Origin: a virus
Lineage: Duplodnaviria > Caudoviricetes
IMG/VR virus record: IMGVR_UViG_3300043480_000021
Location: 5,422 to 69,421 of that record
Strand: one strand, 5' to 3'
Length of the DNA: 64,000 nt
Shown: positions 1 through 48,302 of the stretch, one piece after another
Layout: the number at the start of each line of letters is the position of its first letter
How positions within the stretch are numbered: position 1 is the first letter of the stretch
The notes under the pieces: generated by a model
Databases searched by the model: none
Seen by the model: only the letters and a program-made list of their open reading frames with translations
What the model was told of the DNA's origin: nothing
Made by a program: the position numbers and the translations under genes

Positions 1-3000
1 CTCCAAATCTTGTTAAGGTCCAGCCCCTTTTCTTTCGCTATCCGGTTCATCACCCGGATGAACTCGATCGAACGGACGTGAAACTCCTGGACCATGTTGA
101 AGATGTTCACCTTGTCGACAAACCACTCGGCGCCGCGGAACGCGGCATCGGCACCTTTGTCGACCTTGGCCAGGGCTTTGTTCCCGTCTACCTGGTCGTG
201 TTTTACGTCGGCCTCGATATCGGCGTTATACCGGCCGAACATCATTTCGTATTGATAAGCGTAGCGATCGAGGATGCCTTCGGCCATCCGGCGCGATCGG
301 AGAGCTCTCCACGCCTGCAGGGCAAGAATGTCGCGGAATTTGAGCTTTGGATCCAGACCGTCTTCTCCGAGCTTGATCTTCCCCTTGGTAGCCGCTTTCC
401 GAAGGAAAAGGTCGATCGTATCCGTCGCGGTCCTGACGCCGATCGTAAAGCCGCCCGATATCGCGTTATTGAACGCGGTTTTATAGGAGGAGATAAGCAG
501 GCCTTTCCAGATCCTCCGGAGGCGCGGCATATAGCCGACCGGTTTTCTCGAGAGAGCGTCGAGTTTTTTCCGAAGCTCGTTTTCCGCTTGGCGATGGCGT
601 GCGTGAGCGGCGTCGATCTCGGCCCTTGCTTCGTCGGTCAGTTCGGCCTCTTTCTCAGCTCGTGCTTCCTGCACTTTTTCCGCGCGGACCCGCTTCACGT
701 CCCGGACGAACGCCAAACCTTTGCCGATCATGCGGTCGGCTTCCTCTTTGGTGAGGCCGTGGCGGTCGTTCAGGACGCGGGCGATGCCGTTATAGTCGCG
801 CGTCTTGGGGTTGGCCAGCATCAGCGAGGTCTCGCGAAGGATCGGGTCGATATCCTGCTTCTCGGCCTCGTCGATAATGGCCTGCTGCAGCGGGGTAAGC
901 GCCGGATCGGTATCGGTCCCGCTGGTCCCTGCGCTCGTGCTGCCACGTCGAGCCGCGCGGGACTTCTTACCGGTCGCTTCGGGATCCGCGGCCCTGGCCT
1001 GCTTCAGATGCGCGTTCGCGATCTTCCGGGCTTCCTTCTGCTTTTCTTTGCGCTCGGTATACAGCTGATCGATCTCTGCGTCGTTCAGGTCCGGATTCGC
1101 GCTTTTCAGGCGCTCGAGGGCGTTCTTTTTGTTTTCCTCGCGCAGCAGCTCCTTGTATTTCGCGTAGCTCCGGGCATGGATCTGATCTGCGAAAGGACGG
1201 ATCCCCGCTCCGAAGATCTCCTGCAGGCGCAGCGTGAACATTTCGGGCTCGAGCTTGATCATTCCGCGGGCGAGCTCTAGGGCGCCGAACTCTGCGAGCT
1301 CGTTAAGCTCTTCGTCCGTCAAGCCGACATTCTGGGCCGTGGTCACGTCCGCGGCCTTCATAGCCGTCATATTCGCCGCTTTCATGTCCGTCGGCGGGTT
1401 AAACCGGTCACGGAATTTGTCGATGATATCGCTCTCTTTTTCGGCGAGCTTTTTGATTATGGATTCCTTGGCGCGGGATATCCTGTTTTTTGCCCTTCGG
1501 GCGCGACGGCGTTTTTGCCGCTCCACTCGATCGAGCTCGCGGTATTTTTTGAACCGGCGGTCCAGGCGGCCGTACTTGCGCGTGAGCTCGTCGACGGCGT
1601 TTTTCGATTCCTCGAGCTCCTCTGCCATTTTCAGCAGCTCGGCCTCGAGGTCGGGCGTCATTTCAGCGTCCGGATCGAAGCGCTGCATTCGGCGCTTAGC
1701 CGTCTCGACGATAAAGTCGGGCGAGAACGGTTCCATCAGCTTCACGGCCTCGATAAACCGGCCGGCCTCGCGCAGCTTCTCGTCGAGAATATCGGCGATC
1801 TGCGCGGCTTGGCCTTTCTTCGCTTCGTAAAAGTCCTTCTTGCCGGCTTTCAGGTCCGCCCGGGCTTCGCGCTGAAGGCGCTGGACCAGCTCGATAGCTA
1901 ACCCGGTATCGACGGAGGAGAGGTCCTTGCCACTAAGCAGTTTTTGGTAGATGATCTCCGCGACGTTGGCATAGTCCGCCATCTCGGCGACTGCGCGGCG
2001 CACATCGTCGTGAGATCTTATGTCGTAGGTTTTACGGTCGGATTCGTAGCCGTGGGCCCGGAGGGTTTCCGGAAGTGAAGCTATTCCTGGTCCCTTGAGG
2101 ACAGGGGGTCCGAGGTTAAATCTTTCTCCACCTGCGCCACCCGGAGGTGATCCCGGATCTTCTCCCGGAGGGCTTTGGGGTTTTTGACCACCTTGCTCAC
2201 TGTCTCGGCCAGGTCTTCCAGCTTTCTCTCGCCTAGATCGGTATTCTTCGGTCGTTCGTCTGATTTGCTCACGGATGTGTTGCTCCCGAACGGCATCGTA
2301 GTTCTTTAACGCTTGCTCGACATTGATGCCTTTCTCTTCGAGGCGTTTGGCGATCGATTCGAAAAATCCTGCTAAGTATTCTACCGCTTCGTCTTCCGAA
2401 ACACCAAGCTCCTCCATGCCTCCGCGGGCCAGTATTGCCGCGGTCTCGTCCCAGGCAACAGCGTCGCGGACGCTTGCCGGAAATTGGTCCAAATACGCGC
2501 CGTAGATCTGCTTGTATTTTTCTACGGCCGTGTGATGATTCAGGTTGTCCGCGAACCGGTCTTCGGATATCGCGGCGTTAAATATCATGTAGCCGGCGCG
2601 GTGGAATTCTTCCTCGGGGAGGAAGCGATCGTCGACGTAAAAAATGAATCCGCCGGCGCCGTTCTCGGCAGCAATCTCGATCGCGTCGGCCACGTTTTTG
2701 ATATTGAGGACCTCGTTCGTCGTGTAGCCGAGCCGCTGCGCCTCTTTTGCCTGGTCGTTTATGAAACGAATGACTTTCGCCGTGAACTCGCGATTCGATT
2801 TCGTATCTTTCAAAATATCGAAAAGCGCGTAGAACGGGACCTCGAAAGCCTGTGTTTTCGTCTGTTGGAAACGGATCTCCTGGTAGACGCGGCGCAGGAA
2901 CTCCGCGGCCTCGGCGTTGAGCTTGATCCGGTACGATTTTGGGCCGTCGAGCTCGACGCGCATCGGCGCGATAAGGTCTCCCAGGGACGCGCCGACGATC

Positions 3001-6000
3001 TCGTCATAGGATTTTTGGCCCGGCAGCCGTGTAGCGAAGAGTGGCTGGCCCTGCATTACCGATATCTGCATCTCGGGCGTTATCTCAACCGCATGAGCCT
3101 TTTGAGTATTCATGCGCTTCGCAGCAGCTTCCGCATTTTCCTCTATTTTGTAAGGACGTGCGGCACTTTTCTCTCCAATAGGCTTCGAATCGTTACCGAC
3201 GATGTAGAAGTCACCAGTTCCACTCTGAACCACACCGTATTGATTCGTATTGATTTCCGCGGGGGTTACTTTCGCGTCCCATTTTCTAGTGTATTTGTCG
3301 ACGAAATTCGGGATGATCTTGTCGTAGAATCCCTTCATCCCGGAGCCTTCGAGTTTCAAATTGTCGCCGGTATATTCTTTCGTGAGCAGCCCGCCTTCCC
3401 GGTCGGTTTTGATCTTTTCGGCCAGTTCTTTCCCGACGGCAGCGGCGAGACCGGCTTCGTCGTAAACACCGATGTCGAACGGATTACCTCTCAGGCTCAC
3501 GCCCTTGATGCCGTACTGGCCGTCGGAATAGGTATAAGACAGGCTTTTAACCTGCGTCGAAAGGTCGTATCGGTCGTTCTGCGTCTCCCCGGTGGTCCAG
3601 GCGACAGCGCCGTAGCCATTTTCAGCGGCGTACCGAAGGGCGCGCTTAAATGCGAGTTCGTGCCATGATTTTTTGAACGGAGCGTCGAGAACCCCTGTTT
3701 CGTTATTTATAAATGAATCTAAACTGCCCGCATGCGGATTTTTGTCAAAGAACTGCTCGCCCTCTTCTTTCGAGGCAAAATCTTGACCGATATCGCCATC
3801 TGGTTTGCGAAGGAAATATTGTTTTTGAGGCCCCTTCGGACTGTATCCTTGCTCGCGCCCCGCCTGGTGCCAGTCCGATTGAATTTCCTCGATGAACAGT
3901 GTTTTCTTCCCGTCGGCATCAGTCCGGTCGTTAAACCGAATGTGGGCGAGGATATTCGGTTCGTCGAAGTGCTTAGACTGAAAAATTCTGTCGTTCGCAC
4001 TATTGAGATTTTTACGGTTAGCCAGCATTTCCCATTCTTGGCGCTGGGCAATGGACACATCTCCCGTATCCATCGCATCGAGCTTTTGGTACCGCGTGAG
4101 TTGATCGGACGTAAGCGCGGACTCGGATGTCGGCAGCGTTAAAAGCAGTTCCCGGTAATTCTCGCCGCCTGGGAGGACACGATCGGAGTATTTTGTAGGC
4201 GATGCCTCAAAGGGATTGCCTAATCCTTCGTCCATAAATCGTACTTCGGCACCATCGTTCAGATACCTTTTAGCTTCATCGAAAGTATGGAATTGTTTTA
4301 CGCCCTGCGCACTCGTAGCCTCGAAAATCTTACCATCCTCGAAAATCGAGCCTACGCGGATTTTCTGCCCGTGTTCTTCATAAACCGGGTGTGGTCTCGT
4401 GATGTCGGCTTGGAAATAATGTAGCTTACCCTTTCGCCCATTCCGCTCGGTAGACTCCGAGTTCCATTCCTTGATAAAGATATCGCCGGTCCGAAAGGTG
4501 CCGCCTTTGATAACTTCCTCAACCTGGACATTATTTGACCGCACGAAATCGAGGACCTCGTCTTTACTGAACGCATCCTTCGAAGCTAAAAAGTCGTCGA
4601 TTCCGAGCCAATCCAGCTCTTCCTTCTTGATCCCGTATTCGGGCTTTAGTATCCCGCGGACCTGATCGGCCGGCGCGCGCTTCGGCATTTTGTCGGTGAT
4701 CACCTTCTCAACCTGGCTGTAGAAAGTCGGCGCGGGGCCTGGCAGAATGGCCGCCTTCATACCCGTCGGCATCGAGGCCTCGGCGATGAACGCATCGCGC
4801 TCGGCCGCCGTAGAGAAATGGAAACCGGCGACAGCACCGCCTTTGTTAAATTTCGAGTAATATCCGCCGTACCGGGGAGCCATGGTATAGCGGAGCGTGT
4901 TGAAGGTTGCCTTATCAAGCAGCTCCTTGGGTTTCGCGACAAATATCCGATTTCCGTTCGTGGTGTGATCGAACTCGGCCGCGTCGAACATGTCGGACCC
5001 CACGCCGGCGGTCTGCGCGGGAGCGCCTTCTGCTCCTTCCATGGCCGCGGCTGCCGGCGACGGCGTGATCGAAACGGGCCCGGCCTCGCTGGTCACGATC
5101 CGGGGCTCGACCTCCACGTGTTCCAAGTAATCGAAAAGCTCCTTGATATCGTCGAAGTGCGAAAGGTCGAGTCCTCCTCCGCTGGGGAGCTGCTTGACGT
5201 GCTCGGGGAAAAACTGTTTTTCCAGGATGATAATGTGCGTTCTCACCTGCGTCGCGGCCCGCTTGAAAGCTACGCCCGGCAGATGAATATCGCCGATCTT
5301 GTACAGGTCTTTTGCGTCCTCGCTTTTGAGGAACTTCTCGAGCTGTTTGTCCGCGGCCGGGCCATCAGGAATAAGCGCGACTATACGCCCTTGGTTGTGA
5401 AGGTGTTTCGCCGCTTTAGCGACGTGGTCGACCGCAGTTTTCCCGCCGGATCCGAAAGGCGGATTCATGACGATCGTATGGTATTTGTTCGCGCCGGTGT
5501 GATGGTTCTCGAAGATATCGCGCTCGAGACGGCCGTCGGTCACGAGTGAGAGCTGCGCGGCGAGCTCCTGCGAAGGCTCGATAACGGTTTTGCGGTTATC
5601 CGGACGGAACCAACGCGCGATCGCGCCATGCCCGGCTGAAGGCTCGAGGGTGTGTTCGGCGAGTCGCTGGTCCGCCCACTCGACCATCTTCAGGCCGATC
5701 GGCTCCGGAGTAGCATAATAATCTTTACCCTCCGCGGATTTGTTCCTCGAGGTTTTCTTGCCCTTCCCGAAATAGAAGCCGATCGCTTTTTGATAATCGG
5801 TCATAGCGGCCGCAAGGGCGCGGTCGCCCTCTTTTCCGCCGAGGCCCTCGTTCTCGCTGGGCGCGTAATCGGTGACTGCTTCCTGGTACCCGTCGATGAA
5901 CGCCTGACGCAGCGCTCTCGCTTCTTCGCCCAGGGCGAGATTTTCGGCCGTCGACGCTCTTTGTGAGATCTGTGTGCCGAAAGCGTATTGCTCGAAGTTC

Positions 6001-9000
6001 GTGCCCGTCGTGATATACAGCTGGATGGCGTTAGTCTTCGTTCCGACGCGGTAGATGCGGCCTTCGGTCTGGATCGCGGCGATCGGGCGCACAGGAAGCC
6101 CGAGGTTGATCAATACGCGCTGGTATTGACCGGTAGTATCGTGCAGCGATATCCCTTCTCGGCCGGCGTCTGACTGCGAGAGCAGGATCTTCGTGCTGCC
6201 GGCATCGTCGTTAAAATCGGCGACGGCCTCGCGCCGCTTCATTTTCGGTACCGTACCGTTGAACATTTTGACCTGGTCGCCGAACTCCGCGGGAAAAACC
6301 TCGTTAGGCGCGACGAGGGTCGTCAGGTCCAGGCCGACCAGGTCAGGGCGTGCGGCGGTGAATTTCGCGTACACGTCGCCCACGTCGTAGATCTCGCCGT
6401 CGAGCCTGATCACGCCGTTAAAATCAGGACCGAAGTCGAAGGGATGAATAGCCTCGTTTTTGTTGTAATCGTGGAAAACCACTACCTTTCGCCCGGCCTC
6501 GAGTTGCGCCTTTACGATCGGGATCACGCTCCGCGCGTTAATGGCCTCGAGGGTGAAACGTTTTGCGAGGTAATTGAAACGCTTGCGGGCGTACTCGTGA
6601 AGATTCCAGAAGCGGCGCTGCTCGATCGTTTCGAGGGCCTTATTCTGGCTCTGGTCCCAGATGTACTGGAAGCCCTCGTCGATCTTCATTCCGATCGCGG
6701 ATTCCGCAAGAATGAATTTCCTCGAGTAGTCGACGTCGATGTTGAGGCGCCGGCCGCGCAGAGCTCCCGCCTTCTGAAGCATGGAATTAAACTGCTGCTC
6801 CATCAGCTCGGTATTTACATCGGCGTCCGGTTTCGTGAGCTTGTTATAGCGCATCCGGTAACCGAAGTGCTGCATAAAGAAACGGTCCTTCGAGCTCCCG
6901 GAGTTGTAGCCGCCGGTGTCGACGTCCGGACCGTAAGAAAAGAGGTAGCCCTCGGCGTATTCGATGTTTTTCTCGTAAGCGAAAGGCGTCGCGGACAGGA
7001 AGACCACCTTCGGCCGCGCTTCAGTTTCGCGCCGGCGATCGTATTCCGCGTAGGCTGCGTCCTGGAGAGGCTGGAGCGCATCGAGCAATCGCTTATATTT
7101 TGCGTTGGCCTCGTCGTATTTGCCTTTGTCCGCTTCCGAATACGTCCGGCGGTACTGACGACTCGCTTTCTCCTTCTCTTCCCGGGCTGCCTCAAGCTGC
7201 TCGAGCTCCGCGGCATTCTTGACGGCGTGATAGTTCCACTGGCCGCGATCGTGAAGCGCGACGGCGCGAAGCATCTGCACGGCGCCGGTCTCGTCGCCGT
7301 CCTTGTTTTGGGAAAGATAATGAGACTCGTCGAAGATGATCGCGTCCCAGACCCGCTCGATAAGGGTGTTATTCGCGCGGAAATTCGCGTAGGTGGTAAG
7401 AACGGTACCGTCGCGGCCGTGGTCGACCGTGCTTTCAAGGCGCTTAGCATTGATGAGGACGTTTTCCGCGCTGGTCCGCCAATCCTCGAGGATCTTGTCG
7501 TTCGGCGCGATGATCAGTATCGACTTTTTGCCCTGCCGGTGGAGGCGTTTTGCTATGCCGAGCCCGGTGTAGGTTTTTCCGGTACCGGTGCCGTTCGTGA
7601 AAAGAACGCCCTCGCCCTCTTCGAGCCGGTTTTCGGCGAAAAGAACGTCTTCGTGTTGTTCGGGAAGTAAAAAGGGAAGCGTTGCCCGGATGTTATCCAG
7701 GTCGCGTAAGACGAGCTCGTGAGATTCGGCCTCTTCCTGAAGCCGGCGCTTTTCGCCTAGTTCAGAGTTGCGTTGAGCAGCTGCCCTAACTGCGTCGCTT
7801 GGTCGATATTCAAAAAGGAGTCCCGAGTCGCTATCTGGACCGCCTCGTCCGTCGTCAAAATCTCCGGAAGTACTTGCCTGATCGCCGGGTGGTGATTCGC
7901 GTACCTCGATATCGCCACGCGTTCCGCCAGGAGCGGCGCCAGCTCCAGGTACGATATCGCTACCTTCGGATCCACTCCCTTGTTCTCCAGCTCGGTCGCT
8001 GCTCGTTCGTGCGCTATCGCCATCTCGTCCGCTTTCAGCGTTAGGAAGTTCCTGCCGAAATTCGTCGCCAGGCCGTTCGCTGCTATCTCGTGCCAGATCT
8101 TCGGTGCTACTTGCAACATCTCCGTACTCCTTGGCCGCGTCGAGCTGGTCCAGCCTTTTGTTGAAAAAGCCTTCAAACCGGCCCGCGCCAATTTCATCAT
8201 AGACCTCTCTTTGCGCGCTTGTAAACTCCGTTGCGCCAAAGAGACCGCCCTGCAGGATGAATTCTTCGAACGGCATCCCGCGCATTTCGGCCTCACCTAT
8301 CTCCTCGATCGCGGCCACAACGTCGCCTACAAGATCGAGCGCCGGCCGTCCTTTTGCTTCGATATCACCTCGTCTGGCCAGGACTATGCCTGCGGCCCTC
8401 GAGGCGTGGGGTGTCGACGGGTTTGCCTTGCGCTCTATCAACAGCCGTCCGAGTTCCGGACCGAAGACGTTCATATTGCGCTCGCGCTCGGTATCGGTCG
8501 CGTTTTGCTTCAGCCGGGCGATCTGCTCACGCTTGCCGGCGTCATTATCCGGCGTCTCTCCGATCGCGGCCGGTCCGCCCACGGCGAACAGGCCTTCCTG
8601 GTCGAGACCGCCCATGTCGAAAAGCGTGTCTCCGGCGGGCGGGAGCGTCTGCGTGGCCTGGTCCGCCGGAGCTGCAGGAATTTCGTCCACCGTGGCGGGA
8701 GCGTCTTCCGTAGCAATTTCGGGCTTTTCGGCGGTTGCCTGGACTACTTTATCGGTTTCGGCCGAAAACTGGTCCAGTGCCTTGTCGATCGCCGCGATAT
8801 CATTCATCCCCGCGGTGAAGTGCGAGGTTTCCGGATCGAACTGGACGGCCAGGTACCAGGATTTGAGATAAGGGATCACGCCGGCGCCGAGGTCCTCGAT
8901 CATCGCCTTGGCATAGTCGGCGAAAAGACGCGCGCCGGCTTCGATGTGGTAGGCTGCGAGCTCGATCCCTGCTTTCGCTACATCCGGATCCAGACCGGCG

Positions 9001-12000
9001 TTGTGCTGGGTGCCTTTAAGCTTTTCACGGAGCAGCTTCCGCGCGGCCTCGGCTTTGTCCTCGGTGACGAAGGTGTTTTTCTTGCCGTATTCGGTTTTCT
9101 GTTTTTTCGCCTTCTTTTCCTGCTCGAAGTAGGCCCGCTGGTCGATCGCAAGCCCGCCCATGCCGGAGAGATCGAGATCGCCGTCCTCGGCCTGCGCGTC
9201 TTTCGCCGCCTTGGCCATTTCCTGACGACCTTCTTCCGTGCGGAAAGGGCTGATCGGCTCGTCGACCGTTTTCGCTTCCTCTACGAGGCGGTCGATCTCG
9301 TTCCGGAGCGTGAGACCGAAAGACTCGGCAGCCATCTCGTCGTAAAACGTCTGGGCGCGTTCGCTGAGAGCGCTACGCGGGGCAACTGTCCACCAGGCAT
9401 AAATGCCATTCCAGAGGTCCTCAAGCAGCGTAATGGCTTCTTCGCGATCGATCCCGGCAAGCTTGTCTGCCTGATTTACGGCCTGCTTGAGTGCGAGGCG
9501 CATAGCTCCGGATTGTGCGAACTGGTCCATGCCCGACGCGCGGCGGCCGCCCCAATCGTCGACAAGAGAAGCCTCGCGGGATTCCGGGAAGAGCTCCGGC
9601 AACGTTTTTGCGGTTTTTACGTCTTCGTCGACGAGGTCAGAGAAAAGAGCGGGCGCGGCCTCGGCTTCCTTCGCGGGCTCCCCGATCCTTCCTGGCGCTG
9701 CGGCCTCTTTCTGGGGTTCAGCTACATTTTCGCCGAAGTCGAAGCTGATATCTTCTTCAGCATCGGACTCGTTTTCTTCGTCGGAAAAGTCGAAAGAGAG
9801 GTCTACTCCGTCGCTTTCGGGTTCGGTTTCGTCGAGGATTTCTTCGCTATCGGGGTTGAAGATGCTTTCCGGGCCATCTTTGCGGCCAGCATGTGGCCGG
9901 CCATCGAGAGCATCGGCACTGCTTTCTTCAGGCGGTCCAGCCTCGCCCCGCCGGGCGACGTGGGTAAGGAGTTCATTGATGATCGATCGGGTTTCTTCTT
10001 CACTGAGTCCATAATTATATCCTAGTTTGACCAAATCATCCTGTTTTTCTTCCGAGATCTCGCCGTCGAGCTCCAGGTCCTCAAAGATCGGCCAGGCTTT
10101 GTCGTCGGTCAGGAAAAGCTCTATCTCGTATGTTTTCTTAAATTCGGCGCGGTTCATACCCGCGAGAATGGTCTCCAATTGCTCTTGCTGAATTTCCTCG
10201 CGCTGGTGATCATCGACGAGCTCCGCGGCGTCCTTTTCGCCGCCTTCTTCAGTAACGAAGTACCGGCGGATGCCGCGGGCGTCCTCTTCGATCAGGTCGA
10301 GGAATACGTTCGGATCGCGGTCCTGAACATCCGGCCACAGGTCGCGCAGGTATCCCATTTCCCAAGCATGCTCGGCCATGTGCTCGGCGTTGTACCTCGA
10401 GTTTCGATTGACGAGGCCGATCTTTCCGAGCTCCTTTTGCGAAATGCGCTCGAGCTCTCCGCCCAGGCGTCCGCGTTTAGCGTCGTCCGTGTCCGGACGG
10501 ATACCACCGGAGGATTGAACGAACTGCCAAAGTGATTTTGCCTTTCCGGGCCTTCCACTCGGCCGCGCGGGCTTACGAGCAGCAATACGCTCGTTATTGG
10601 CGTTGAAGGCTTCACTCTCGAAACTGCCGGCGATCTCGCCGGAGACGTTGCCAGCGGGCGCATGCGTGATTTTGACGCGGGTTTTTCCGGTCACCTCATA
10701 CTCGTAGCCTTTCCAGCGCAGCCGGGCCCGATTTTGCTTCTTCCGGAGGATGCTGGCGGTCGACCGCGAAACGTCGACGCTAACAGCACTCTCTAAAACC
10801 GAGGGTTTTACCTTTTTCGGCGATTTACGGAAGTATTCCCGCTTCGAGATCTTGTCTCTGACGATACGGTCGAGATCGCCGGGCTGAACATTCTCGAGAT
10901 CCTGCGCGTGATAGCCGAGTTTGCGGAGGATCCGGGTCCGCAAAGACTTGAGAGGTTTGGCGGCGTGAGTTTTTTCGCGCAGGTCGACCTCGGCGATCCG
11001 TTCGCCTTTTACCGGCAGCTCGAAGCGTTCGAAGACATTCCGCGCGCCGGTATCCGTTTGGACGGGCTTTTGAGAAGTAACCAGGTTGGAGACGAATTTC
11101 TCCTTCGGCGATTCCGGCATCGAGGGTTTCGCTTCCTGGATCCAGCGCATCGTGTCCTCAGCCGTCTTTTCCTCTTCACGCTTCTTGACGGCGTCGGAGA
11201 CCGGCATAACGACCTGCGAGACGGGCTCATCCGGAAAATGAGCTGCATCCTGTGCTTTCTGCTCCTCGATATTCGCGGGATCCGTAATGACGCTCGACGA
11301 AAGCTCCCGGCCGGTCTGATCCTCGGTTCGGACGACGTCTCCGGTTGCTGTGTCGCCGGTATGATCCTCAACCTTTCCGAGCATGTCGGAATAGCCCTTT
11401 TCCTGTACGTGCGCGGCGATCTCCTCGGGAGAGTTAAGACCGAGCTGCTCCTTTGCCTTTTCGGTGTTTACAAAGAGGACGCCCTCGTCCACAGGGACCG
11501 GTATAAGTTTTTCCGCGCCGGGCCCGTTTATCAGCTCGCCCTGTCCGGATTCGGTAAGGAGGACGGCGGACCGCGGCGATTCGTCGATCAGAGTGCTTAC
11601 GATCTGCTTTTGGATAGTAAAGTCCGATTCCGGCGACGTGGGCGCGGGTCTGGCCTGTTCCGGCGCCTGGACCGGAGCTTCGGCGGAATTGTCGGCGCCG
11701 AGGATATCGTCGACAAGACTAACGCCGGAGGGATGCGCTTCAACAGGCGCGGATTCCGCGGCCGGCGCGGGTGTTTCTGGGGAGAGGGGAATAAGAATAT
11801 CCGGGCGGTCCTCGTCCTCGATCGGCTTCGCCTCGAGGATCTCCTCGTCGCGCGGGATAACAACGTCTCCGACCTTTTCTTTTGAGGGAACACTGATACC
11901 GGATTTTTCGGCAATATCTTTCGAGATAACGACCTGCCTCTGCTGGAGCGCTGCGAGCTCGCGCCGGAGCTTCCAGATCTGTTTAAGAACGCCGCGGTTA

Positions 12001-15000
12001 GCGGAGAGTCCTTTTTTCGGGTCTGCCTTATCTTGGAGCGCGGAGATCTCGGCCTGGACCTCCTCGATGCCGTTCCGGCTGTTCTCGTAAGACTCGATAA
12101 GCTCGCGGTTCTTGTCGGTGACCTTAACCTTCTTACCGAAAGCATAGATCTCGCCTTCGCCGAAATGCTCGATGATCACGCCGTTCGCTTGCTCTTCCTC
12201 GATCGCGCGTTTGATCCTGCGCCGGTTACGGACGGTATTGAGAACCGTAACCGCCACGGACACGAGAGGCGCGGATATGCCGGCGACGAGCATGTTGTCG
12301 GCGAGGTCCTTGTCGGCCTTTCGGTCAGGATCGTAAACGAGATTTGCGACGATGTTCCCGGAAAACGTCTGCGTGCCTTCCTGGACGAGCTCTTCGGGCG
12401 CTTCCTTTCTCGCCTCCCTCCATGCTTCCCGGAAGAGTTTCCGCCACACGGTACCGCCGGCGCCTTTATTGAGACGGACCAGCGCTTCGCCGATACCCGC
12501 GATCTCGGTAATACCGAGCGGAGCGGTCAAGAGACCGGCCAGTTGTGCCTTATCTTCCGACGCGCCGAACTCGATCGCCTCTTTGTACGTATCGCCGCCC
12601 ATCTGCAGGGAAGACAGGAGGGCGATCATCAGCTTTGGGGATTTCGAGAAGCCGCCCGGCATCATTCCGAGCGAGGACCCCACGCCCTGCGGAAGTTTGC
12701 CGGCGAGAAACTCCCGCTCCATGTCTTCGTCGGTCGGCAGCCATTCGTTTAAGAATTGCTCGCCCCTTTCGGCGATCCCGAATGTCGCATAGTCCGAAAC
12801 CTTTTTGCGCGGGTTATCGGCGCCGTAAAGGACGTCGTCGATCGATTTCGAAGCCAAGGCTATGCCTCGATAGGTCGACGCGATCGCGACGGACAGAGCG
12901 GACTTGACGGTACCGAAAATGATGCCCTGGGCGCTGCCCTTGATGTAATCGCCCCAGCTCATTTGAGCGACCCGGCTTTTTCGGGCCTCCTCGGCCAGCT
13001 CGAGCTCGCGCATTTTGCGGTTGCGGTTGGTGATCGAACCGTAGAGCTCAAGTTCGCGCCGCATGTAGTTGGCCGTATTCTGAGCGGCCGCGGCGTCGGT
13101 TGGTCGCAGATCGAGCTCCTGAAAGCCCGTCGCGCGGGAGGCCTGCACCTTTTGATTTCCGCCCTGGATCTGTGCCCGGCGCTCCGATTGGAGCTTCCGG
13201 TACGCTTCGGCTTCCTTTTCGGCGACTGCGCGGGGAAGCCAGCCAACCTTGGCCTTTGCCTGCAGGGAGGCTAGATACGCATCGCCCTCTTGTTTCTGAA
13301 ATTCCTCGAGATATCGGCCGAAGTCTTTTCGCGAAACGCCGCCTTTGACCTTGGCCATCTCGAGCTCGTCGTAGCGCCGATCGGCGAGGGCCGAAGGATC
13401 GAAGTCGTTTTCCTTGAACTGCGCGAGATCGCGCGGCGTGAATTCCTGGCCCGAGGCGATAATGCCGAGAGCGTAATCCTCGAGCATTTTTCGGCGTTTG
13501 GATGAAAAAGCCTGAAGATCCTTAAGATCGCCGCGGGTGATATCGAACGGCTCTGTAGCTTTGTCGCCTTTGGCAAAATAATCCTCATGGCTGTAATTCT
13601 TGCCCGTATCGAGTTTGCGAAAACCAGTAGCTTGGTAAAAAGCCCGGATATCCGACTCGGGCACCTCCCGGAAGAGCTCCGGATCGCCCGCAACAGCGCC
13701 TTTCAGCGTAATCGCCACTTGATGGCTTAAAAGCAATTTAGCCGCTTCGTCGGTCGTTGAATTCTTTAAACGCTCCGGGATTAGTTCGATTCTCGTCTCA
13801 TGGGTGGCCAGCGATGCCAGAGACTCCGGACGAATATCCTTGGTTACAGGGTTTGCGATATACGTCTCGCCCTGATCATCCATCACGCGAATCTCGCCTT
13901 GCTTCAACCCGGCCGTATCCGGGGTGTGGGTAAGAACGCGCCCGTCCGCCGTTTTGATCTGATCGGTCCGCTCGAGGTCCGTTGCTTGTTTTTGCACCTC
14001 ATCTGAGGGGGAATTTCGAGCAACGCGCGGCACGCCGGCGCCCGGGCCGCGCCGTTTTGCCTGTTTCGGCCGGTTGGCGATCGCTACGTCGAGCTCGGCG
14101 AAGAGAGCATTATCGTCGGGTGTGAAAACACCCGTTTGTTTCCCATCCTTTACCGCCTGGTGCCCGTCGATGAATTTGCGGCGCAGCTCCTCCGAATCAG
14201 TGAATCCGTACGTCTTCAGATAACTCTGGTAGGAGGCTTTTAACGCGGGATCGTCCGGAAGCACAGATTTCGGCTTCGTCTTTCCAAGTACCCACGCCGG
14301 CAACTCGCGACGTATCTCAAACTTTTCGCCGTTCGGTTTAGCGAGATACGTTTTGCCGGTCTTCGAGTTTTTTAGCCTTATAAATCCTGGCGGCACATCC
14401 TTATCGTCGGTCTGCACTACCTCGCTGCCGTCTTTCTCCATGAAGCGCAGCTTTGGGTTTTCTTCGGCAATCTTTGTACCATCTACGATAAAATTAACGG
14501 GATTGCCGGCGACCTCTCGCGTGTACCTAGTACCCGCCTTGACGCCCTTTTGCCCGTCCGGGCCATCGGCGCGGATATACTCGGCCTTATTACCGTCCTG
14601 GATGCGCTTTGGCGGGCCGGTAGGCACAAGACGGACCTTTTCGCCTTCGATCTGACCTTCAAGAAGATCGCCGTCGGCATCCTTGAAGTAATGCTTGCCG
14701 CCCGCGGTACCGACATACTCGTGATCACCGAGCTTGCCGGATCGTTCGAAGTCGAACGTAGGGACCTTGTTTCGCTCGAAAGTGGTAGGGATCGGCGCGC
14801 TGAAAGGGGTACTTTCGGGGGAATTAGGAGTTTGATTTTTTTGATTGGTGAGGGCTGTGCCCGGTAGGGCTACGGAAGCAGTCCGCCCGTTTCCGGACTG
14901 CGGACCGCCGGGCGTAATTTGGCGTGACGCGCCGATGGTTTTCTTTTGCGCGTTCAACTGCACGAGCTGTTCCGTGATCTTCCGGATGGCGTCGGAGATA

Positions 15001-15866
15001 CGGCGCCGCTCAACTCGGTCCTTTGTCTTTTTCAGCTGAATCTGGAGATCGTCGCGCTGTTTTGTGAGATTTACGATCGGGTCGACCTCCGGAGGATCCT
15101 CCGGGGCGACATTTGCGCCGGGCATGGTCTCCGGGATCCTCTCAGGTACCAGGATCTCGGGAACCTCACCCGCGGGCTGTCCCGGTTCCGGCTGGCCGCC
15201 TAGCACATCGCCTACAAGGTCGCTGCCGGTCGCGGGTCCATCTTGCGGACGAGCTCCGGCCATAACATCCTGAATCAGGTCGTTGGCCGACGCGATTCCG
15301 AACGGTATGCCCGAAGGCATCGGTCGCGCGGGCGGGCGGGCGAACCCGCCAGTTTTCTCGACGTATGACCGGTACGTTTCTTTAAGATCCGGCCGGTAAG
15401 AATAAAGCCTGATATTTGGGACCTCGCCGGTCCGTCGATAGTAACCGATGATGTTGTTTCTCGCCCCAACATAGCGCAGCCGCCGCACGACGGGATCAAC
15501 AGGATCGCCGGCGACAAACTCACGCAGTCCCATTTGCCAGTTATCCTGCTCGTTGAACGGGTCCAGGCCTTCGGCTTCATAAGGTTTCGCCGTGCCGGGC
15601 ATTATTTGAGAGCCGCCGATCGCCCGGTCGCCGTTTGCGGTTGGTATGCCGCGCTTGACGATATTTGTGCCCGGCCAATAATGAGCGCGTCCGCTTTCGA
15701 TTTTTATGAGGTTGTAATAATCCTCAACATCATCGTCGGAGATATTGACCTTCCGACGACGCGCCTCCTGGGCCGCCTGGTAGAGCTTCGCCCTCACACC
15801 GTTATCGCTTTTTGCTGGTGCTTTCTTGCTTTTGGTGCCGAGTAGATCGTCGATTATGTCGGACAT
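1..15866 (-). CDS. Giant DarB-like / large polyvalent virion-ejected protein, at least 5288 aa, 3'-truncated by the window edge (lytic transglycosylase + SF2 helicase + N6-adenine MTase + further domains)
   Basis: ATG at 15866 (MSDIIDDLLGTKSKK), 8 nt after the upstream stop. My manual translation stays in one frame to position 3 (...IRVMNRIAKEKGLDLNKIW) with no stop seen; frame re-checked at 10040, 3797 and 59. The missing stop explains its absence from the ORF track. Confidence 0.9.
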   Translation of the reverse strand, partial: MSDIIDDLLGTKSKKAPAKSDNGVRAKLYQAAQEARRRKVNISDDDVEDYYNLIKIESGRAHYWPGTNIVKRGIPTANGDRAIGGSQIMPGTAKPYEAEGLDPFNEQDNWQMGLREFVAGDPVDPVVRRLRYVGARNNIIGYYRRTGEVPNIRLYSYRPDLKETYRSYVEKTGGFARPPARPMPSGIPFGIASANDLIQDVMAGARPQDGPATGSDLVGDVLGGQPEPGQPAGEVPEILVPERIPETMPGANVAPEDPPEVDPIVNLTKQRDDLQIQLKKTKDRVERRRISDAIRKITEQLVQLNAQKKTIGASRQITPGGPQSGNGRTASVALPGTALTNQKNQTPNSPESTPFSAPIPTTFERNKVPTFDFERSGKLGDHEYVGTAGGKHYFKDADGDLLEGQIEGEKVRLVPTGPPKRIQDGNKAEYIRADGPDGQKGVKAGTRYTREVAGNPVNFIVDGTKIAEENPKLRFMEKDGSEVVQTDDKDVPPGFIRLKNSKTGKTYLAKPNGEKFEIRRELPAWVLGKTKPKSVLPDDPALKASYQSYLKTYGFTDSEELRRKFIDGHQAVKDGKQTGVFTPDDNALFAELDVAIANRPKQAKRRGPGAGVPRVARNSPSDEVQKQATDLERTDQIKTADGRVLTHTPDTAGLKQGEIRVMDDQGETYIANPVTKDIRPESLASLATHETRIELIPERLKNSTTDEAAKLLLSHQVAITLKGAVAGDPELFREVPESDIRAFYQATGFRKLDTGKNYSHEDYFAKGDKATEPFDITRGDLKDLQAFSSKRRKMLEDYALGIIASGQEFTPRDLAQFKENDFDPSALADRRYDELEMAKVKGGVSRKDFGRYLEEFQKQEGDAYLASLQAKAKVGWLPRAVAEKEAEAYRKLQSERRAQIQGGNQKVQASRATGFQELDLRPTDAAAAQNTANYMRRELELYGSITNRNRKMRELELAEEARKSRVAQMSWGDYIKGSAQGIIFGTVKSALSVAIASTYRGIALASKSIDDVLYGADNPRKKVSDYATFGIAERGEQFLNEWLPTDEDMEREFLAGKLPQGVGSSLGMMPGGFSKSPKLMIALLSSLQMGGDTYKEAIEFGASEDKAQLAGLLTAPLGITEIAGIGEALVRLNKGAGGTVWRKLFREAWREARKEAPEELVQEGTQTFSGNIVANLVYDPDRKADKDLADNMLVAGISAPLVSVAVTVLNTVRNRRRIKRAIEEEQANGVIIEHFGEGEIYAFGKKVKVTDKNRELIESYENSRNGIEEVQAEISALQDKADPKKGLSANRGVLKQIWKLRRELAALQQRQVVISKDIAEKSGISVPSKEKVGDVVIPRDEEILEAKPIEDEDRPDILIPLSPETPAPAAESAPVEAHPSGVSLVDDILGADNSAEAPVQAPEQARPAPTSPESDFTIQKQIVSTLIDESPRSAVLLTESGQGELINGPGAEKLIPVPVDEGVLFVNTEKAKEQLGLNSPEEIAAHVQEKGYSDMLGKVEDHTGDTATGDVVRTEDQTGRELSSSVITDPANIEEQKAQDAAHFPDEPVSQVVMPVSDAVKKREEEKTAEDTMRWIQEAKPSMPESPKEKFVSNLVTSQKPVQTDTGARNVFERFELPVKGERIAEVDLREKTHAAKPLKSLRTRILRKLGYHAQDLENVQPGDLDRIVRDKISKREYFRKSPKKVKPSVLESAVSVDVSRSTASILRKKQNRARLRWKGYEYEVTGKTRVKITHAPAGNVSGEIAGSFESEAFNANNERIAARKPARPSGRPGKAKSLWQFVQSSGGIRPDTDDAKRGRLGGELERISQKELGKIGLVNRNSRYNAEHMAEHAWEMGYLRDLWPDVQDRDPNVFLDLIEEDARGIRRYFVTEEGGEKDAAELVDDHQREEIQQEQLETILAGMNRAEFKKTYEIELFLTDDKAWPIFEDLELDGEISEEKQDDLVKLGYNYGLSEEETRSIINELLTHVARRGEAGPPEESSADALDGRPHAGRKDGPESIFNPDSEEILDETEPESDGVDLSFDFSDEENESDAEEDISFDFGENVAEPQKEAAAPGRIGEPAKEAEAAPALFSDLVDEDVKTAKTLPELFPESREASLVDDWGGRRASGMDQFAQSGAMRLALKQAVNQADKLAGIDREEAITLLEDLWNGIYAWWTVAPRSALSERAQTFYDEMAAESFGLTLRNEIDRLVEEAKTVDEPISPFRTEEGRQEMAKAAKDAQAEDGDLDLSGMGGLAIDQRAYFEQEKKAKKQKTEYGKKNTFVTEDKAEAARKLLREKLKGTQHNAGLDPDVAKAGIELAAYHIEAGARLFADYAKAMIEDLGAGVIPYLKSWYLAVQFDPETSHFTAGMNDIAAIDKALDQFSAETDKVVQATAEKPEIATEDAPATVDEIPAAPADQATQTLPPAGDTLFDMGGLDQEGLFAVGGPAAIGETPDNDAGKREQIARLKQNATDTERERNMNVFGPELGRLLIERKANPSTPHASRAAGIVLARRGDIEAKGRPALDLVGDVVAAIEEIGEAEMRGMPFEEFILQGGLFGATEFTSAQREVYDEIGAGRFEGFFNKRLDQLDAAKEYGDVASSTEDLARDSSERPGDEFRQELPNAESGRDGDSARTSSDRAGEQGSGSEGSDIVPGAGAAPGGTRGDIEVRESPPGDQASTSGDFDDGRGGPDSDSGLLFEYRPSDAVRAAAQRNSELGEKRRLQEEAESHELVLRDLDNIRATLPFLLPEQHEDVLFAENRLEEGEGVLFTNGTGTGKTYTGLGIAKRLHRQGKKSILIIAPNDKILEDWRTSAENVLINAKRLESTVDHGRDGTVLTTYANFRANNTLIERVWDAIIFDESHYLSQNKDGDETGAVQMLRAVALHDRGQWNYHAVKNAAELEQLEAAREEKEKASRQYRRTYSEADKGKYDEANAKYKRLLDALQPLQDAAYAEYDRRRETEARPKVVFLSATPFAYEKNIEYAEGYLFSYGPDVDTGGYNSGSSKDRFFMQHFGYRMRYNKLTKPDADVNTELMEQQFNSMLQKAGALRGRRLNIDVDYSRKFILAESAIGMKIDEGFQYIWDQSQNKALETIEQRRFWNLHEYARKRFNYLAKRFTLEAINARSVIPIVKAQLEAGRKVVVFHDYNKNEAIHPFDFGPDFNGVIRLDGEIYDVGDVYAKFTAARPDLVGLDLTTLVAPNEVFPAEFGDQVKMFNGTVPKMKRREAVADFNDDAGSTKILLSQSDAGREGISLHDTTGQYQRVLINLGLPVRPIAAIQTEGRIYRVGTKTNAIQLYITTGTNFEQYAFGTQISQRASTAENLALGEEARALRQAFIDGYQEAVTDYAPSENEGLGGKEGDRALAAAMTDYQKAIGFYFGKGKKTSRNKSAEGKDYYATPEPIGLKMVEWADQRLAEHTLEPSAGHGAIARWFRPDNRKTVIEPSQELAAQLSLVTDGRLERDIFENHHTGANKYHTIVMNPPFGSGGKTAVDHVAKAAKHLHNQGRIVALIPDGPAADKQLEKFLKSEDAKDLYKIGDIHLPGVAFKRAATQVRTHIIILEKQFFPEHVKQLPSGGGLDLSHFDDIKELFDYLEHVEVEPRIVTSEAGPVSITPSPAAAAMEGAEGAPAQTAGVGSDMFDAAEFDHTTNGNRIFVAKPKELLDKATFNTLRYTMAPRYGGYYSKFNKGGAVAGFHFSTAAERDAFIAEASMPTGMKAAILPGPAPTFYSQVEKVITDKMPKRAPADQVRGILKPEYGIKKEELDWLGIDDFLASKDAFSKDEVLDFVRSNNVQVEEVIKGGTFRTGDIFIKEWNSESTERNGRKGKLHYFQADITRPHPVYEEHGQKIRVGSIFEDGKIFEATSAQGVKQFHTFDEAKRYLNDGAEVRFMDEGLGNPFEASPTKYSDRVLPGGENYRELLLTLPTSESALTSDQLTRYQKLDAMDTGDVSIAQRQEWEMLANRKNLNSANDRIFQSKHFDEPNILAHIRFNDRTDADGKKTLFIEEIQSDWHQAGREQGYSPKGPQKQYFLRKPDGDIGQDFASKEEGEQFFDKNPHAGSLDSFINNETGVLDAPFKKSWHELAFKRALRYAAENGYGAVAWTTGETQNDRYDLSTQVKSLSYTYSDGQYGIKGVSLRGNPFDIGVYDEAGLAAAVGKELAEKIKTDREGGLLTKEYTGDNLKLEGSGMKGFYDKIIPNFVDKYTRKWDAKVTPAEINTNQYGVVQSGTGDFYIVGNDSKPIGEKSAARPYKIEENAEAAAKRMNTQKAHAVEITPEMQISVMQGQPLFATRLPGQKSYDEIVGASLGDLIAPMRVELDGPKSYRIKLNAEAAEFLRRVYQEIRFQQTKTQAFEVPFYALFDILKDTKSNREFTAKVIRFINDQAKEAQRLGYTTNEVLNIKNVADAIEIAAENGAGGFIFYVDDRFLPEEEFHRAGYMIFNAAISEDRFADNLNHHTAVEKYKQIYGAYLDQFPASVRDAVAWDETAAILARGGMEELGVSEDEAVEYLAGFFESIAKRLEEKGINVEQALKNYDAVREQHIREQIRRTTEEYRSRREKAGRPGRDSEQGGQKPQSPPGEDPGSPPGGAGGERFNLGPPVLKGPGIASLPETLRAHGYESDRKTYDIRSHDDVRRAVAEMADYANVAEIIYQKLLSGKDLSSVDTGLAIELVQRLQREARADLKAGKKDFYEAKKGQAAQIADILDEKLREAGRFIEAVKLMEPFSPDFIVETAKRRMQRFDPDAEMTPDLEAELLKMAEELEESKNAVDELTRKYGRLDRRFKKYRELDRVERQKRRRARRAKNRISRAKESIIKKLAEKESDIIDKFRDRFNPPTDMKAANMTAMKAADVTTAQNVGLTDEELNELAEFGALELARGMIKLEPEMFTLRLQEIFGAGIRPFADQIHARSYAKYKELLREENKKNALERLKSANPDLNDAEIDQLYTERKEKQKEARKIANAHLKQARAADPEATGKKSRAARRGSTSAGTSGTDTDPALTPLQQAIIDEAEKQDIDPILRETSLMLANPKTRDYNGIARVLNDRHGLTKEEADRMIGKGLAFVRDVKRVRAEKVQEARAEKEAELTDEARAEIDAAHARHRQAENELRKKLDALSRKPVGYMPRLRRIWKGLLISSYKTAFNNAISGGFTIGVRTATDTIDLFLRKAATKGKIKLGEDGLDPKLKFRDILALQAWRALRSRRMAEGILDRYAYQYEMMFGRYNADIEADVKHDQVDGNKALAKVDKGADAAFRGAEWFVDKVNIFNMVQEFHVRSIEFIRVMNRIAKEKGLDLNKIW
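5180..5740 (-). other. N6-adenine DNA methyltransferase domain of the giant protein
   Basis: DYYATPEPIG, SAM-binding LEPSAGHG (about 5625-5650) and catalytic IVMNPPF (about 5455-5475), in gamma-class order. Confidence 0.85.
5880..7700 (-). other. SF2 helicase domain (Strawberry-notch-like) of the giant protein
   Basis: Walker A FTNGTGTGKT (about 7575-7600), Walker B IIFDESH (about 7320-7340), motif III LSATP (about 6985-7000), and C-terminal AGREGISLH...QTEGRIYR (about 6045-6170). Confidence 0.85.
7757..8119 (-). CDS. Nested (overprinted, +1 frame) 120-aa protein inside the giant ORF
   Basis: SD AAGGAG at 8127-8132, 7 nt before ATG 8119; TAG at 7757. The product MLQVAPKIWHEIAANGLATNFGRNFLTLKADEMAIAHERAATELENKG... 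has globular helical composition. The giant-ORF frame over the same bases is a G/S/D/R-rich disordered linker. Confidence 0.7.
   Translation of the reverse strand: MLQVAPKIWHEIAANGLATNFGRNFLTLKADEMAIAHERAATELENKGVDPKVAISYLELAPLLAERVAISRYANHHPAIRQVLPEILTTDEAVQIATRDSFLNIDQATQLGQLLNATLN
15330..15866 (-). other. N-terminal lytic transglycosylase (SLT/lysozyme-like) domain of the giant protein
   Basis: Catalytic-Glu motif LIKIESG (about 15693-15710), followed by GGSQIMPGTA and LDPFNEQDNWQMGLREF, matching the SLT E-S, GxxQ and helix-N pattern. Boundaries approximate. Confidence 0.75.
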
Positions 15867-15874
15867 GATAAAAG

Positions 15875-17017
15875 CTACTGGGTAGGAATGTACCCCCACG
15901 TTTGCATCGCATAGGCCTCGAGGGCTGTCCGCGTCTCTTCCGGGGTCGGCATCCGGAAGTTGGTCCGTGAGAAATTAGCTTCCCATTGCGAGCGATACGT
16001 CGACATTTGCTGCCGGGCCTGCTGGTACTGAGTCGCGGTGATCTGTTTCGTCTGCCGGTTATTTTGCTGCTGCTGGTTAAACTGCGTCGACCACTGCGAA
16101 AGAACGAGCGGCGCGAGCTGCTTCGGAGCTATCTTCAGCGGTACGCCGCCGATCTTCGCGTCGATCGGCACTTCCGACGCGTCGACGGGCATACCGGGCG
16201 AGGGTTCCCACTCTTTGGTGTCCGGGTTCTGGGTGAAGAACGCGCCGGCCTGCTCCTTCGTTTCGCGCCTTCTCGCATCGAAGTCCGAGAGCTCGATATC
16301 GGCATCGGCGAGCTGCTGGTCAAAATCCGCGTTCGCGCCCTTCTTGTAAAAATTCTGCTTCGCGATCTGGCCGAGGAGCTGCTGCCGGAGCGTAAGTTTG
16401 CGTTTCTCCTCGTCGCCTTTAAGCTTTTCTTCATCCCGCGCCTTTCGATCGGCGTCGTCGCGGGTCATATTTTCCATTTGCGACTGCTTGTAGGCGCTTT
16501 GGAAATACTGGTCCTCTTCCTTATCGAGCTGGCCGAGGTCCTTGCGGTTCGTTTCCTGCTTACGAAGCCGCGCATCTTCCTCGTCCCACTTGTCGTTGAT
16601 CATGCCGCCGGCGAACGCCCCGGGCGCTCTCGACAGACGCCCGAAAAACTCTTCCCAGTTTTTGACGACGCCCAACTGCGGGCTGTAGGCGTCCGCCAAG
16701 GCGCGGAGACCGGCTTCGGCGCCGCTCCTTAAGCGCGAGTCTTCGGATTTTTCCGTTTTATGAGAAAGCTGCTCCCTTTCTTCCTCGAGCTTCCTGCGAC
16801 GATCGGCATAAGGCCCGACATAGGGCACGGACGCGCCTTTCGCGATCGCTTCGGGCGAAGGGTTGGCATTAAAGTGCTGATCGCCGAGATCCGCCGGCTG
16901 TTGTGGACGAAAAACGGTAGGGACCAGCGTGTTACCGCCGCGGCCGCTAAGCGTGGCAAAATCTTCCTCGGCATCGCGCCGGCGTACGGTCGGTACTCGT
17001 GATTGCTGATTTCTCAT
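15875..17017 (-). CDS. Putative internal virion/ejection protein (380 aa)
   Basis: Q/E/K-rich helical protein directly upstream of the giant ejection gene. Function inferred from position only. Confidence 0.5.
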   Translation of the reverse strand: MRNQQSRVPTVRRRDAEEDFATLSGRGGNTLVPTVFRPQQPADLGDQHFNANPSPEAIAKGASVPYVGPYADRRRKLEEEREQLSHKTEKSEDSRLRSGAEAGLRALADAYSPQLGVVKNWEEFFGRLSRAPGAFAGGMINDKWDEEDARLRKQETNRKDLGQLDKEEDQYFQSAYKQSQMENMTRDDADRKARDEEKLKGDEEKRKLTLRQQLLGQIAKQNFYKKGANADFDQQLADADIELSDFDARRRETKEQAGAFFTQNPDTKEWEPSPGMPVDASEVPIDAKIGGVPLKIAPKQLAPLVLSQWSTQFNQQQQNNRQTKQITATQYQQARQQMSTYRSQWEANFSRTNFRMPTPEETRTALEAYAMQTWGYIPTQ

Positions 17018-47423: not shown

Positions 47424-48302
47424 CTACTCGCAGACTCCGGCCATGCATCGCGGTTCGTCCTCGAAATCCTCAAAATGAAAGTCGTAATTAGAGCTGTGTT
47501 TCCGGTCAGACGTGCGCGACCAGGCGACAACGTCGTCGATCGTCGGAACGTATATCTCACGGCCGTCTTTCGTGATGATCAGCTTTGAACGATAACGTTT
47601 CGGCGTCTTATCGATCGGGAACGCTTGGCCGAATCCCGCGTCGTTCGGCATCGTGTTTTCCTTCTCGCGTACCAGATCGATCCGCTCCGGATATTGGTTC
47701 GCAATCAGTCGAATTTCGCTCTTGCTAGCGAATACGACGCAGGGGAAGCATCCGACGCGTGTGAAGCCCTTTGCATAAAGAGGGTTTAGCGGAAAGCTAT
47801 ATTTTTTATGAATCAGGAACACATCCTCGAGGGTCCATCTAAGCAACGGCCTCCACTCCGGCCGGCCGTGATATGTCTCTAAGGAGTGGCCCCATTCGTC
47901 GTACAAGGACCGCTCCTTGCTTTCCTCGGCGCGTACTCCGGTCACTGAGACGATATTGCCCCCGAGGGTCGTCATAAACCGCTTGGCGGGTTCAAGCTTC
48001 AAGTATTGCGTACAAAATCGGGCCTGCTTGTAAGGGAACATCTTCTTTTTGTGGACCAGGTCGTAAAACGGAAGCTCGGGCTCGAGCCAGACGACCGGGT
48101 GCAATTCCTTCGAGATAAGAAGGATGTGATCATAGACTTCCTTCGCCTCGTTGCCGGTGTTCGAGAACGTACAGATCAGCTTCGACAGCGGGATATCGTT
48201 TTCGGGAAAGAATTCGTTCTTCAAATAGAGCAAGAGCGCGGCCGAGTCTTTTCCGCTCGAGATCCCGGCAACGAACCAATCTATTTGAGAGAAGTCGATC
48301 AT
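47424..48302 (-). CDS. Phosphoadenosine phosphosulfate (PAPS) reductase-family protein
   Basis: PP-loop ISSGKDS, TFSNTGNE, RFCTQYLKLEP, GVRAEESKERS, NPLYAKGFTRVGCFPC. Confidence 0.88.
   Translation of the reverse strand: MIDFSQIDWFVAGISSGKDSAALLLYLKNEFFPENDIPLSKLICTFSNTGNEAKEVYDHILLISKELHPVVWLEPELPFYDLVHKKKMFPYKQARFCTQYLKLEPAKRFMTTLGGNIVSVTGVRAEESKERSLYDEWGHSLETYHGRPEWRPLLRWTLEDVFLIHKKYSFPLNPLYAKGFTRVGCFPCVVFASKSEIRLIANQYPERIDLVREKENTMPNDAGFGQAFPIDKTPKRYRSKLIITKDGREIYVPTIDDVVAWSRTSDRKHSSNYDFHFEDFEDEPRCMAGVCE

Follow-up and report, generated by a model that had tools for sequence, protein, structure and literature searches.

A conserved +1-frame gene nested before the helicase-methyltransferase module of giant phage proteins

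Does a 120-codon open reading frame that lies wholly inside one of the largest genes of a phage encode a protein of its own, and if so, what might that protein do? The question is raised by a 64,000-nt stretch of viral DNA (hereafter, the window), in which a sequence-only reading had proposed an internally translated gene just before a helicase domain. The relevant features are listed below.

1..15899, minus strand: giant polyvalent host gene (phrog_10691), 6,003 aa in the full record, extending past the left edge of the window
8808..9092, minus strand: helical domain with an HIEAG motif in the host frame, upstream of the nested gene, present in 65/123 giants
8196..8225, minus strand: candidate sigma70-like promoter, TTTACA-18-TATGAT, by consensus match only
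8127..8132, minus strand: Shine-Dalgarno (SD) sequence AAGGAG, 7 nt 5' of the nested ATG, from the sequence and from family-wide SD enrichment
7757..8119, minus strand: nested +1-frame gene for a 120-aa, probably soluble and all-alpha protein, from homologue conservation and predicted fold
7758..8120, minus strand: host-frame G/S/D/R/A spacer over the nested gene, neutral in sequence and always stop-free
5109..7715, minus strand: SF2 helicase followed by an N6-adenine methyltransferase (MTase), with Walker A at 7595 and NPPF at 5465

The host frame starts at 15899 and remains stop-free for 6,003 codons in the full 69-kb provirus record. This giant gene is the last of the late strand and is followed by an integrase-like ORF, and the same strand in the window also encodes large terminase, DnaB and ParB-like proteins. 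Its product is of the polyvalent type, a multi-domain protein with a helicase and an N6-MTase in a virion gene block. The helicase matches ResIII/Helicase_C and, weakly, the Strawberry-notch families AAA_34/Helicase_C_4. The giant protein is probably packaged in the virion and injected, a reading drawn from gene position, the annotation of relatives and the description of polyvalent proteins (PMC5512222). A PAPS-reductase-like gene lies just upstream of the terminase (47424-48302, minus strand); phage Bcep22 has one near its DarB-like gene. At another locus, an IS110-like transposase and an integrase-like ORF, both named from sequence appearance, lie past the end of the giant gene (L305:166-981 and 1641-2864).

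The proposed arrangement of AAGGAG, 7 nt, ATG, 120 codons and TAG is present in full at 8132-7757. The ORF itself (8119-7757, minus strand) is in +1 relative to the host frame, and 54 codons separate its stop from the Walker A of the helicase that follows. The nested frame is also open for 59 codons farther 5' (GTG at 8296); homologues begin at the ATG. An open frame alone is weak proof of a gene, because this one survives 60% of synonymous host-codon resamplings at the window locus (mean of 30% across loci). The host-frame linker described over the nested ORF is evident from its composition, which is 53% G/S/D/R and 12% large hydrophobic residues, compared with 27% and 27% in the whole protein. 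A bias toward G/A at nested third positions, cited as a sign of dual coding, is indeed seen (69%), but it is weak evidence for such coding, as host first positions reach 65% gene-wide.

That the nested ORF is more than chance follows from its conservation across loci. A tblastn search with the 120-aa product retrieved eight GenBank phage records at 29-36% identity, including Skulduggery, 45A6, ZX1, Parlo and two Vibrio phages. In each of these six genomes, the match is an unannotated +1 ORF with an ATG and an SD, located inside a giant gene immediately ahead of the helicase. With the helicase as query, the search led to the same eight records. To avoid circularity, 160 loci were gathered by helicase alone, and 140 of them carry the nested ORF. 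The other 20 comprise 16 stand-alone helicase-MTase genes and four contigs that end before the site. No homologue of the nested gene was found within 7 kb of the 16 stand-alone genes, which encode ~840-850 aa where readable and reside in Flavobacteriia-type phage replication modules and integrative elements. The window module is 41% identical to such 840-aa genes (L043:6935-9457, L046:5518-8043, L128:5079-7634, L137:1850-4405). In the reverse test, with loci chosen by the nested protein, an in-frame helicase-MTase followed in 78/86; the remaining eight were three cut or frameshifted contigs and five free, extended copies.

The nested ORF is in +1 in all intact loci, and stops in that frame among homologues that keep the linker were looked for and not seen in intact loci. 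The L122 contig has a host frameshift, and L130 is a decayed remnant with an internal deletion: in this Pseudomonas thermotolerans prophage remnant (L130:6864-6962), the nested gene is shortened by an in-frame deletion and the helicase is truncated. Strict adjacency to the helicase is not required, since 180-370 extra host-domain codons intervene in some giants (L097/L098:5706-6065, L125, L014, L309). The upstream HIEAG domain is not an invariant partner, being found in only 53% of giants, which leaves the helicase-MTase as the only invariant neighbor found. A profile search yielded 661 clusters of the nested-protein family at 50% identity, spanning Proteobacteria, Bacteroidota, Firmicutes and other phyla, and 1,600 sampled bacterial genomes contributed only two new copies, both nested. 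Gene callers miss the ORF unless it is free or its contig is broken. At the level of sequence, these comparisons show that the nested gene always accompanies one enzyme module when that module sits in a virion-type giant protein.

Two further +1 ORFs in the window, 10021-9803 and 2305-2081 (minus strand), look protein-like and lie under G/P/R/S-rich host linkers; neither has an SD or a tblastn match in the fetched loci. A second conserved nested family with SDs was not found in these giants, whose genuine shadow ORFs have S/R/P-rich products and no SD.

We compared selection on the two frames across homologues, as the sequence-only reading had suggested. In pairs at 0-25% nucleotide divergence, pN/pS was 0.27-0.34 for the nested frame, compared with 1.7-2.0 for the host frame and 0.13 for the helicase core, which served as a control. 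The nested value stayed below 0.7 in all 34 disjoint pairs, and changes fell mostly at nested third positions. Because the codon alignment follows the nested protein, it favors the nested frame at high divergence, though hardly in close pairs. Selection is thus purifying on the nested frame and neutral on the host frame. Over the nested ORF, no host stop occurs in 144 dereplicated loci, in which the spacer consists of 17% Gly, 12% Ala, 10% Ser, 10% Asp and 9% Arg. As the host frame is stop-free but neutral, the giant protein is still read through and the spacer sequence is a by-product. The dual-coding constraint that had been claimed is therefore one-sided, in that the host frame need only be stop-free and hydrophilic. 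The term overprinted, with its implication of a younger and less constrained frame, does not suit the nested ORF, which is the constrained one. The direction is probably reversed, with the host linker a read-through of the small gene. No ancestral free operon for the nested gene was seen.

Signals for initiation are also conserved. Among 144 loci, the nested start is ATG in 141 and GTG in three, and an SD core is present in 103, compared with 59±4 expected. Loci without an SD are largely from Bacteroidota and carry A at -3, -6, -12 and -13; an A-rich upstream context is the known initiation context of this phylum. Judged by these motifs, the nested start follows its host, with an SD or, in Bacteroidota, an A-rich leader.

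Transcription may start internally as well. A -10-like hexamer at -40..-15 occurs in 43 loci, compared with 13.7±2.8 under a host-synonymous null, and does so in all three host phases. Against a dinucleotide-shuffle null, the count is 44 versus 16.7±3.4, and under the dinucleotide null extended -10 boxes number 14 versus 1.7±1.1. The boxes peak ~25 nt upstream of the nested start. No excess was found in windows beyond -100, or in upstream control windows under the dinucleotide null; under the synonymous null, the -100..-41 window is slightly high (32 versus 21.6). The signal rises above background in about one-fifth of loci; a -35 box is usually absent, and the loci include relatives that are not independent of one another. 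These data suggest an internal promoter in part of the nested family, and an A/T-rich translation enhancer could account for some of the excess. In the window, the candidate -10 box lies 82 nt 5' of the nested ATG, farther than the family peak. Public "RNA" runs for one relative (L204) yielded contigs with flat depth and are probably DNA.

AlphaFold2 (115 sequences) predicts an eight-helix domain with a pLDDT of 91 and a pTM of 0.84, in agreement with the folded, helical product that had been proposed. Family members are 119-152 aa long and mildly acidic (mean net charge of -4, median pI of 5.0), and their conserved residues are E66, A69, P85, E92 and A93. A protease role was rejected because these positions include no Ser, Cys or His that could be catalytic. 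A membrane or exported role was rejected as well, as maximum hydropathy is 1.7 and no membrane segment was found. The nested protein was also considered as a TnpV (PF14198) relative and dismissed; none of the 115 members gave a TnpV match among the 25 families shown. Searches of Pfam, PHROGs, PADLOC, PDB sequences, Foldseek (PDB, BFVD), VIA-align and the ESM Atlas returned no relatives, which is not proof of a new fold. An underpowered inter-chain MI-APC analysis of the nested protein and the module (119 paired sequences, Neff of 87) gave a top Z of 6.3, compared with 5.8-7.0 for shuffled pairs. The nested product thus appears to be a separately startable, soluble, folded protein of an undescribed family.

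Some members are no longer nested. About one-quarter of the top 150 profile matches exceed 150 aa, and we looked at the surroundings of 15 free or extended copies, hand-picked as long matches. In some the -1 frame is still open, in others it has up to 16 stops; some retain scraps of giant protein, and a quick tree intersperses them with nested copies (12 changes for 14 rows), with nearest nested relatives at 40-80% identity. One free copy is MBP2641197.1. The decaying frames, the scraps and the scattered placement indicate that the free copies are derived, and repeatedly so; the nested gene would have left the giant gene about 12 times. Seven of the 15 adjoin or are fused to restriction or defense genes, although the function may reside in the unrelated C-terminal additions of free copies, and defense genes are in any case found on small integrative elements. 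One is the first gene before a type I restriction-modification (RM) system plus HEPN in a P4-like satellite. Another heads an hsdM-hsdS-darT-darG-hsdR cluster, a type I RM locus with darT-darG between hsdS and hsdR (L299:8001-16851). A third is cargo in an AlpA-type satellite, next to Dcm/Vsr and an MmeI-like system. Others directly follow McrC, adjoin BREX/DISARM-like and HKD-SNF2 helicases, or are fused to a coiled coil, a J-like segment and a PDC-S68-like nuclease domain. Two more lie in integrase elements with cargo of no assigned kind, and the other copies have uninformative surroundings. In P0040, P0053, P0090 and P0145, a host-frame upstream domain is fused in frame to the nested domain. 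The nuclease-fused copy (L266:1749-3350) adjoins a serine recombinase and is a candidate sensor-effector defense protein. Two unrelated free copies (L173:9000-9674 and L276:2085-2696) have an acidic domain in common at their C termini; it is repeated in P0063, contains a WEEY..Q.Q.EES.F motif and has no Pfam match.

Could the frame nonetheless be a shadow that encodes no protein, open merely because a hydrophilic linker has few stop-making codons? The resampling frequencies given above would allow it, but purifying selection acts on the +1 frame and not on the host frame, the start, SD and length are conserved, the predicted fold is confident, and free copies exist whose -1 frame gained up to 16 stops. 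The chance of a mere shadow is close to negligible. We also find it very unlikely that a programmed +1 frameshift yields a shortened giant protein with the nested domain at its C terminus. The in-frame fusions to an upstream domain in several free copies would be explained by such a transframe product, yet the first residue of the domain coincides with a conserved ATG, SD and host-adapted initiation context, a +1 stop precedes the ATG by 0-4 codons in many loci, and no common slippery site is evident upstream. The nested gene is almost certainly real, and the comparisons bear out the initial observation of a +1 gene within a gene. That it encodes an internally translated partner linked to the helicase-MTase, as had been proposed, is strongly supported by co-occurrence, start signals and selection, all of which are sequence-based.

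The role of this partner is less clear-cut. The sequence-only reading offered, among other options, an antitoxin that quiets a toxic enzyme. This idea is weakened by the 16 stand-alone homologues, whose existence without the nested gene indicates that the helicase-MTase is not inherently toxic, and we rejected a toxin-antitoxin pair. The restriction of the nested gene to modules that belong to a virion-type giant, together with the built-in co-expression from one mRNA, would suit an assembly chaperone or loading adaptor that keeps the helicase-MTase soluble or partly unfolded for procapsid packing, with no part in inhibition or exclusion. Such a role can be likened to that of P1 DarA/Hdf/Ulx in the loading of DarB. 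We consider it somewhat unlikely, as it leaves unexplained both the internal -10 boxes and the repeated capture by elements without a giant protein. A co-injected or early helper of the helicase-MTase, or else a protein that acts on host restriction enzymes as an anti-restriction factor or RM regulator, with free copies regulating RM, would be in keeping with the location of the gene in an anti-restriction-type module, the mild acidity of its product and the free copies beside type I RM, McrC and type IIG-like systems. However, the family is far less acidic than the strongly acidic DNA mimics Ocr and ArdA, and a fold comparison made with DNA-mimic anti-restriction proteins in view gave no match (best Z of 5.2). 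The strict pairing with one helicase family is also easier to reconcile with a cognate target than with a host target, which differs across phyla, and we judge this explanation unlikely.

The interpretation we prefer, to which we give about an even chance, is that the small protein is made separately and, in the cytoplasm, inhibits the injected helicase-methylase, and that hosts and satellites have co-opted it. The giant protein would be packaged in the virion and injected, and its translocase-methylase would act on incoming phage DNA. The nested protein would bind the module encoded right behind it and switch it off. Produced from the late mRNA, to which some phages would add a transcript from its own internal promoter, it may hold new copies of the module off DNA until packaging. 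Expressed from a prophage or a newly entered genome, it may block the injected module of related phages, resulting in exclusion. Nesting would tie the inhibitor to its cognate target, such that recombination in mosaic genes could not part them. Capture by satellites and chromosomal restriction loci would follow if the small protein disables or senses an injected anti-restriction enzyme, plausibly to neutralize or detect that module. A broader proposal is more tentative, and the balance is against it: that injected polyvalent phage proteins carry, within their own gene, a separately transcribed inhibitor of their helicase-methylase that evolved at least twice with unrelated proteins, serves in prophage exclusion, and was stolen by hosts and satellites on about a dozen occasions, to act as an anti-anti-restriction factor or a nuclease-fused sensor.

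These results reveal an unannotated family hidden in one of the largest phage genes, and they bear on a long-standing question, namely the role of DarB-like injected helicase-methylases and how the producing cell is spared. A probable small, soluble partner occupies a fixed place in the culturable phages Parlo, ZX1, Skulduggery, 45A6 and Vibrio 1.232.O, in which the nested gene can be disabled with little change to the host protein. In the Serratia phage Parlo (NC_048758), the nested gene occupies 53818-54207; ZX1 is a Klebsiella phage and Skulduggery a Pseudomonas phage. Disordered linkers of giant phage proteins can be shadows of real genes, and the escaped copies represent a possible new layer of counter-counter-defense beside restriction systems. 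Literature searches, largely of openly accessible papers, found no description of the nested arrangement, and the family, its likely internal promoter and its escape into defense loci appear to be undescribed.

One of the closest characterized systems is P1 DarB. Polyvalent proteins that include its methylase-helicase dyad have been described (PMC5512222), and word searches of that paper found no mention of a nested gene. The likeness lies in a giant protein that joins an SF2 helicase to an N6-adenine MTase within a virion gene block, and relatives of the present giants are annotated as DarB-like. The order differs, being helicase then MTase without LPD36 here and LPD36-MTase-SNF2 in DarB. A DarB-type dyad was accordingly rejected as the host module, in which the helicase comes first and NPPF follows Walker A by 659-880 aa (121 loci). 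P1 darB has no nested gene of the present family and no such ORF before its module. The statement in the sequence-only reading that other DarB-like genes contain similar segments is upheld by gp75 of Bcep22, a DarB-like protein of classical MTase-SNF2 order with an unannotated +1 ORF and AAGGAGG just before the module.

L179:22338-22658 (NC_005262, 52337 onward): Bcep22 nested ORF, 107 aa, with a weak TnpV match

This ORF is conserved in 41 records and among phages of Burkholderia and Ralstonia. It has in common with the present family the +1 frame, a strong SD, a host spacer and a position directly before a methylase-helicase module. The TnpV-like protein itself has no detectable similarity to the nested product (hhalign 0.5%, TnpV-like set of five sequences), and the enzyme module is different. 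The Bcep22 layout appears to have met the same need independently. At codon 869 of gp75 (L179), a second short +1 ORF of 54 aa, with AGGAGG-ATG, lies over an A/P/Q-rich host linker.

SieA of phage P22 is a membrane protein that acts from the prophage against injected virion proteins. Superinfection exclusion aimed at ejection proteins is the subject of PMC10883804. The analogy extends to the proposed logic only, in which a prophage-made protein would disable injected virion proteins; SieA has its own gene, whereas the present protein lacks a membrane segment, and its gene lies within that of the presumed target.

Nested same-strand genes as such are already known, as in lambda Rz1 within Rz, phiX174 E within D and comS within srfAB of B. 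subtilis. In each, as here, a whole gene lies within another on the same strand, in a shifted frame and with its own ribosome-binding site, and the Rz and Rz1 products act together; Rz1-type pairs are annotated in Parlo and Bcep22. The present case differs in its host, a 3,000-6,000-aa virion polyprotein whose own frame is reduced to a neutral spacer, and in its product, which appears soluble and helical, belongs to no known family and has probably escaped many times. For the spacer, the nearest parallel is hepatitis B virus, in which the polymerase spacer overlies preS. By analogy, reading through a constrained gene in a different frame would in both cases give rise to a flexible spacer between enzyme domains. 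Here, the virus is bacterial, the proteins are unrelated, and the nested gene sits directly 5' of the domain that is its likely partner.
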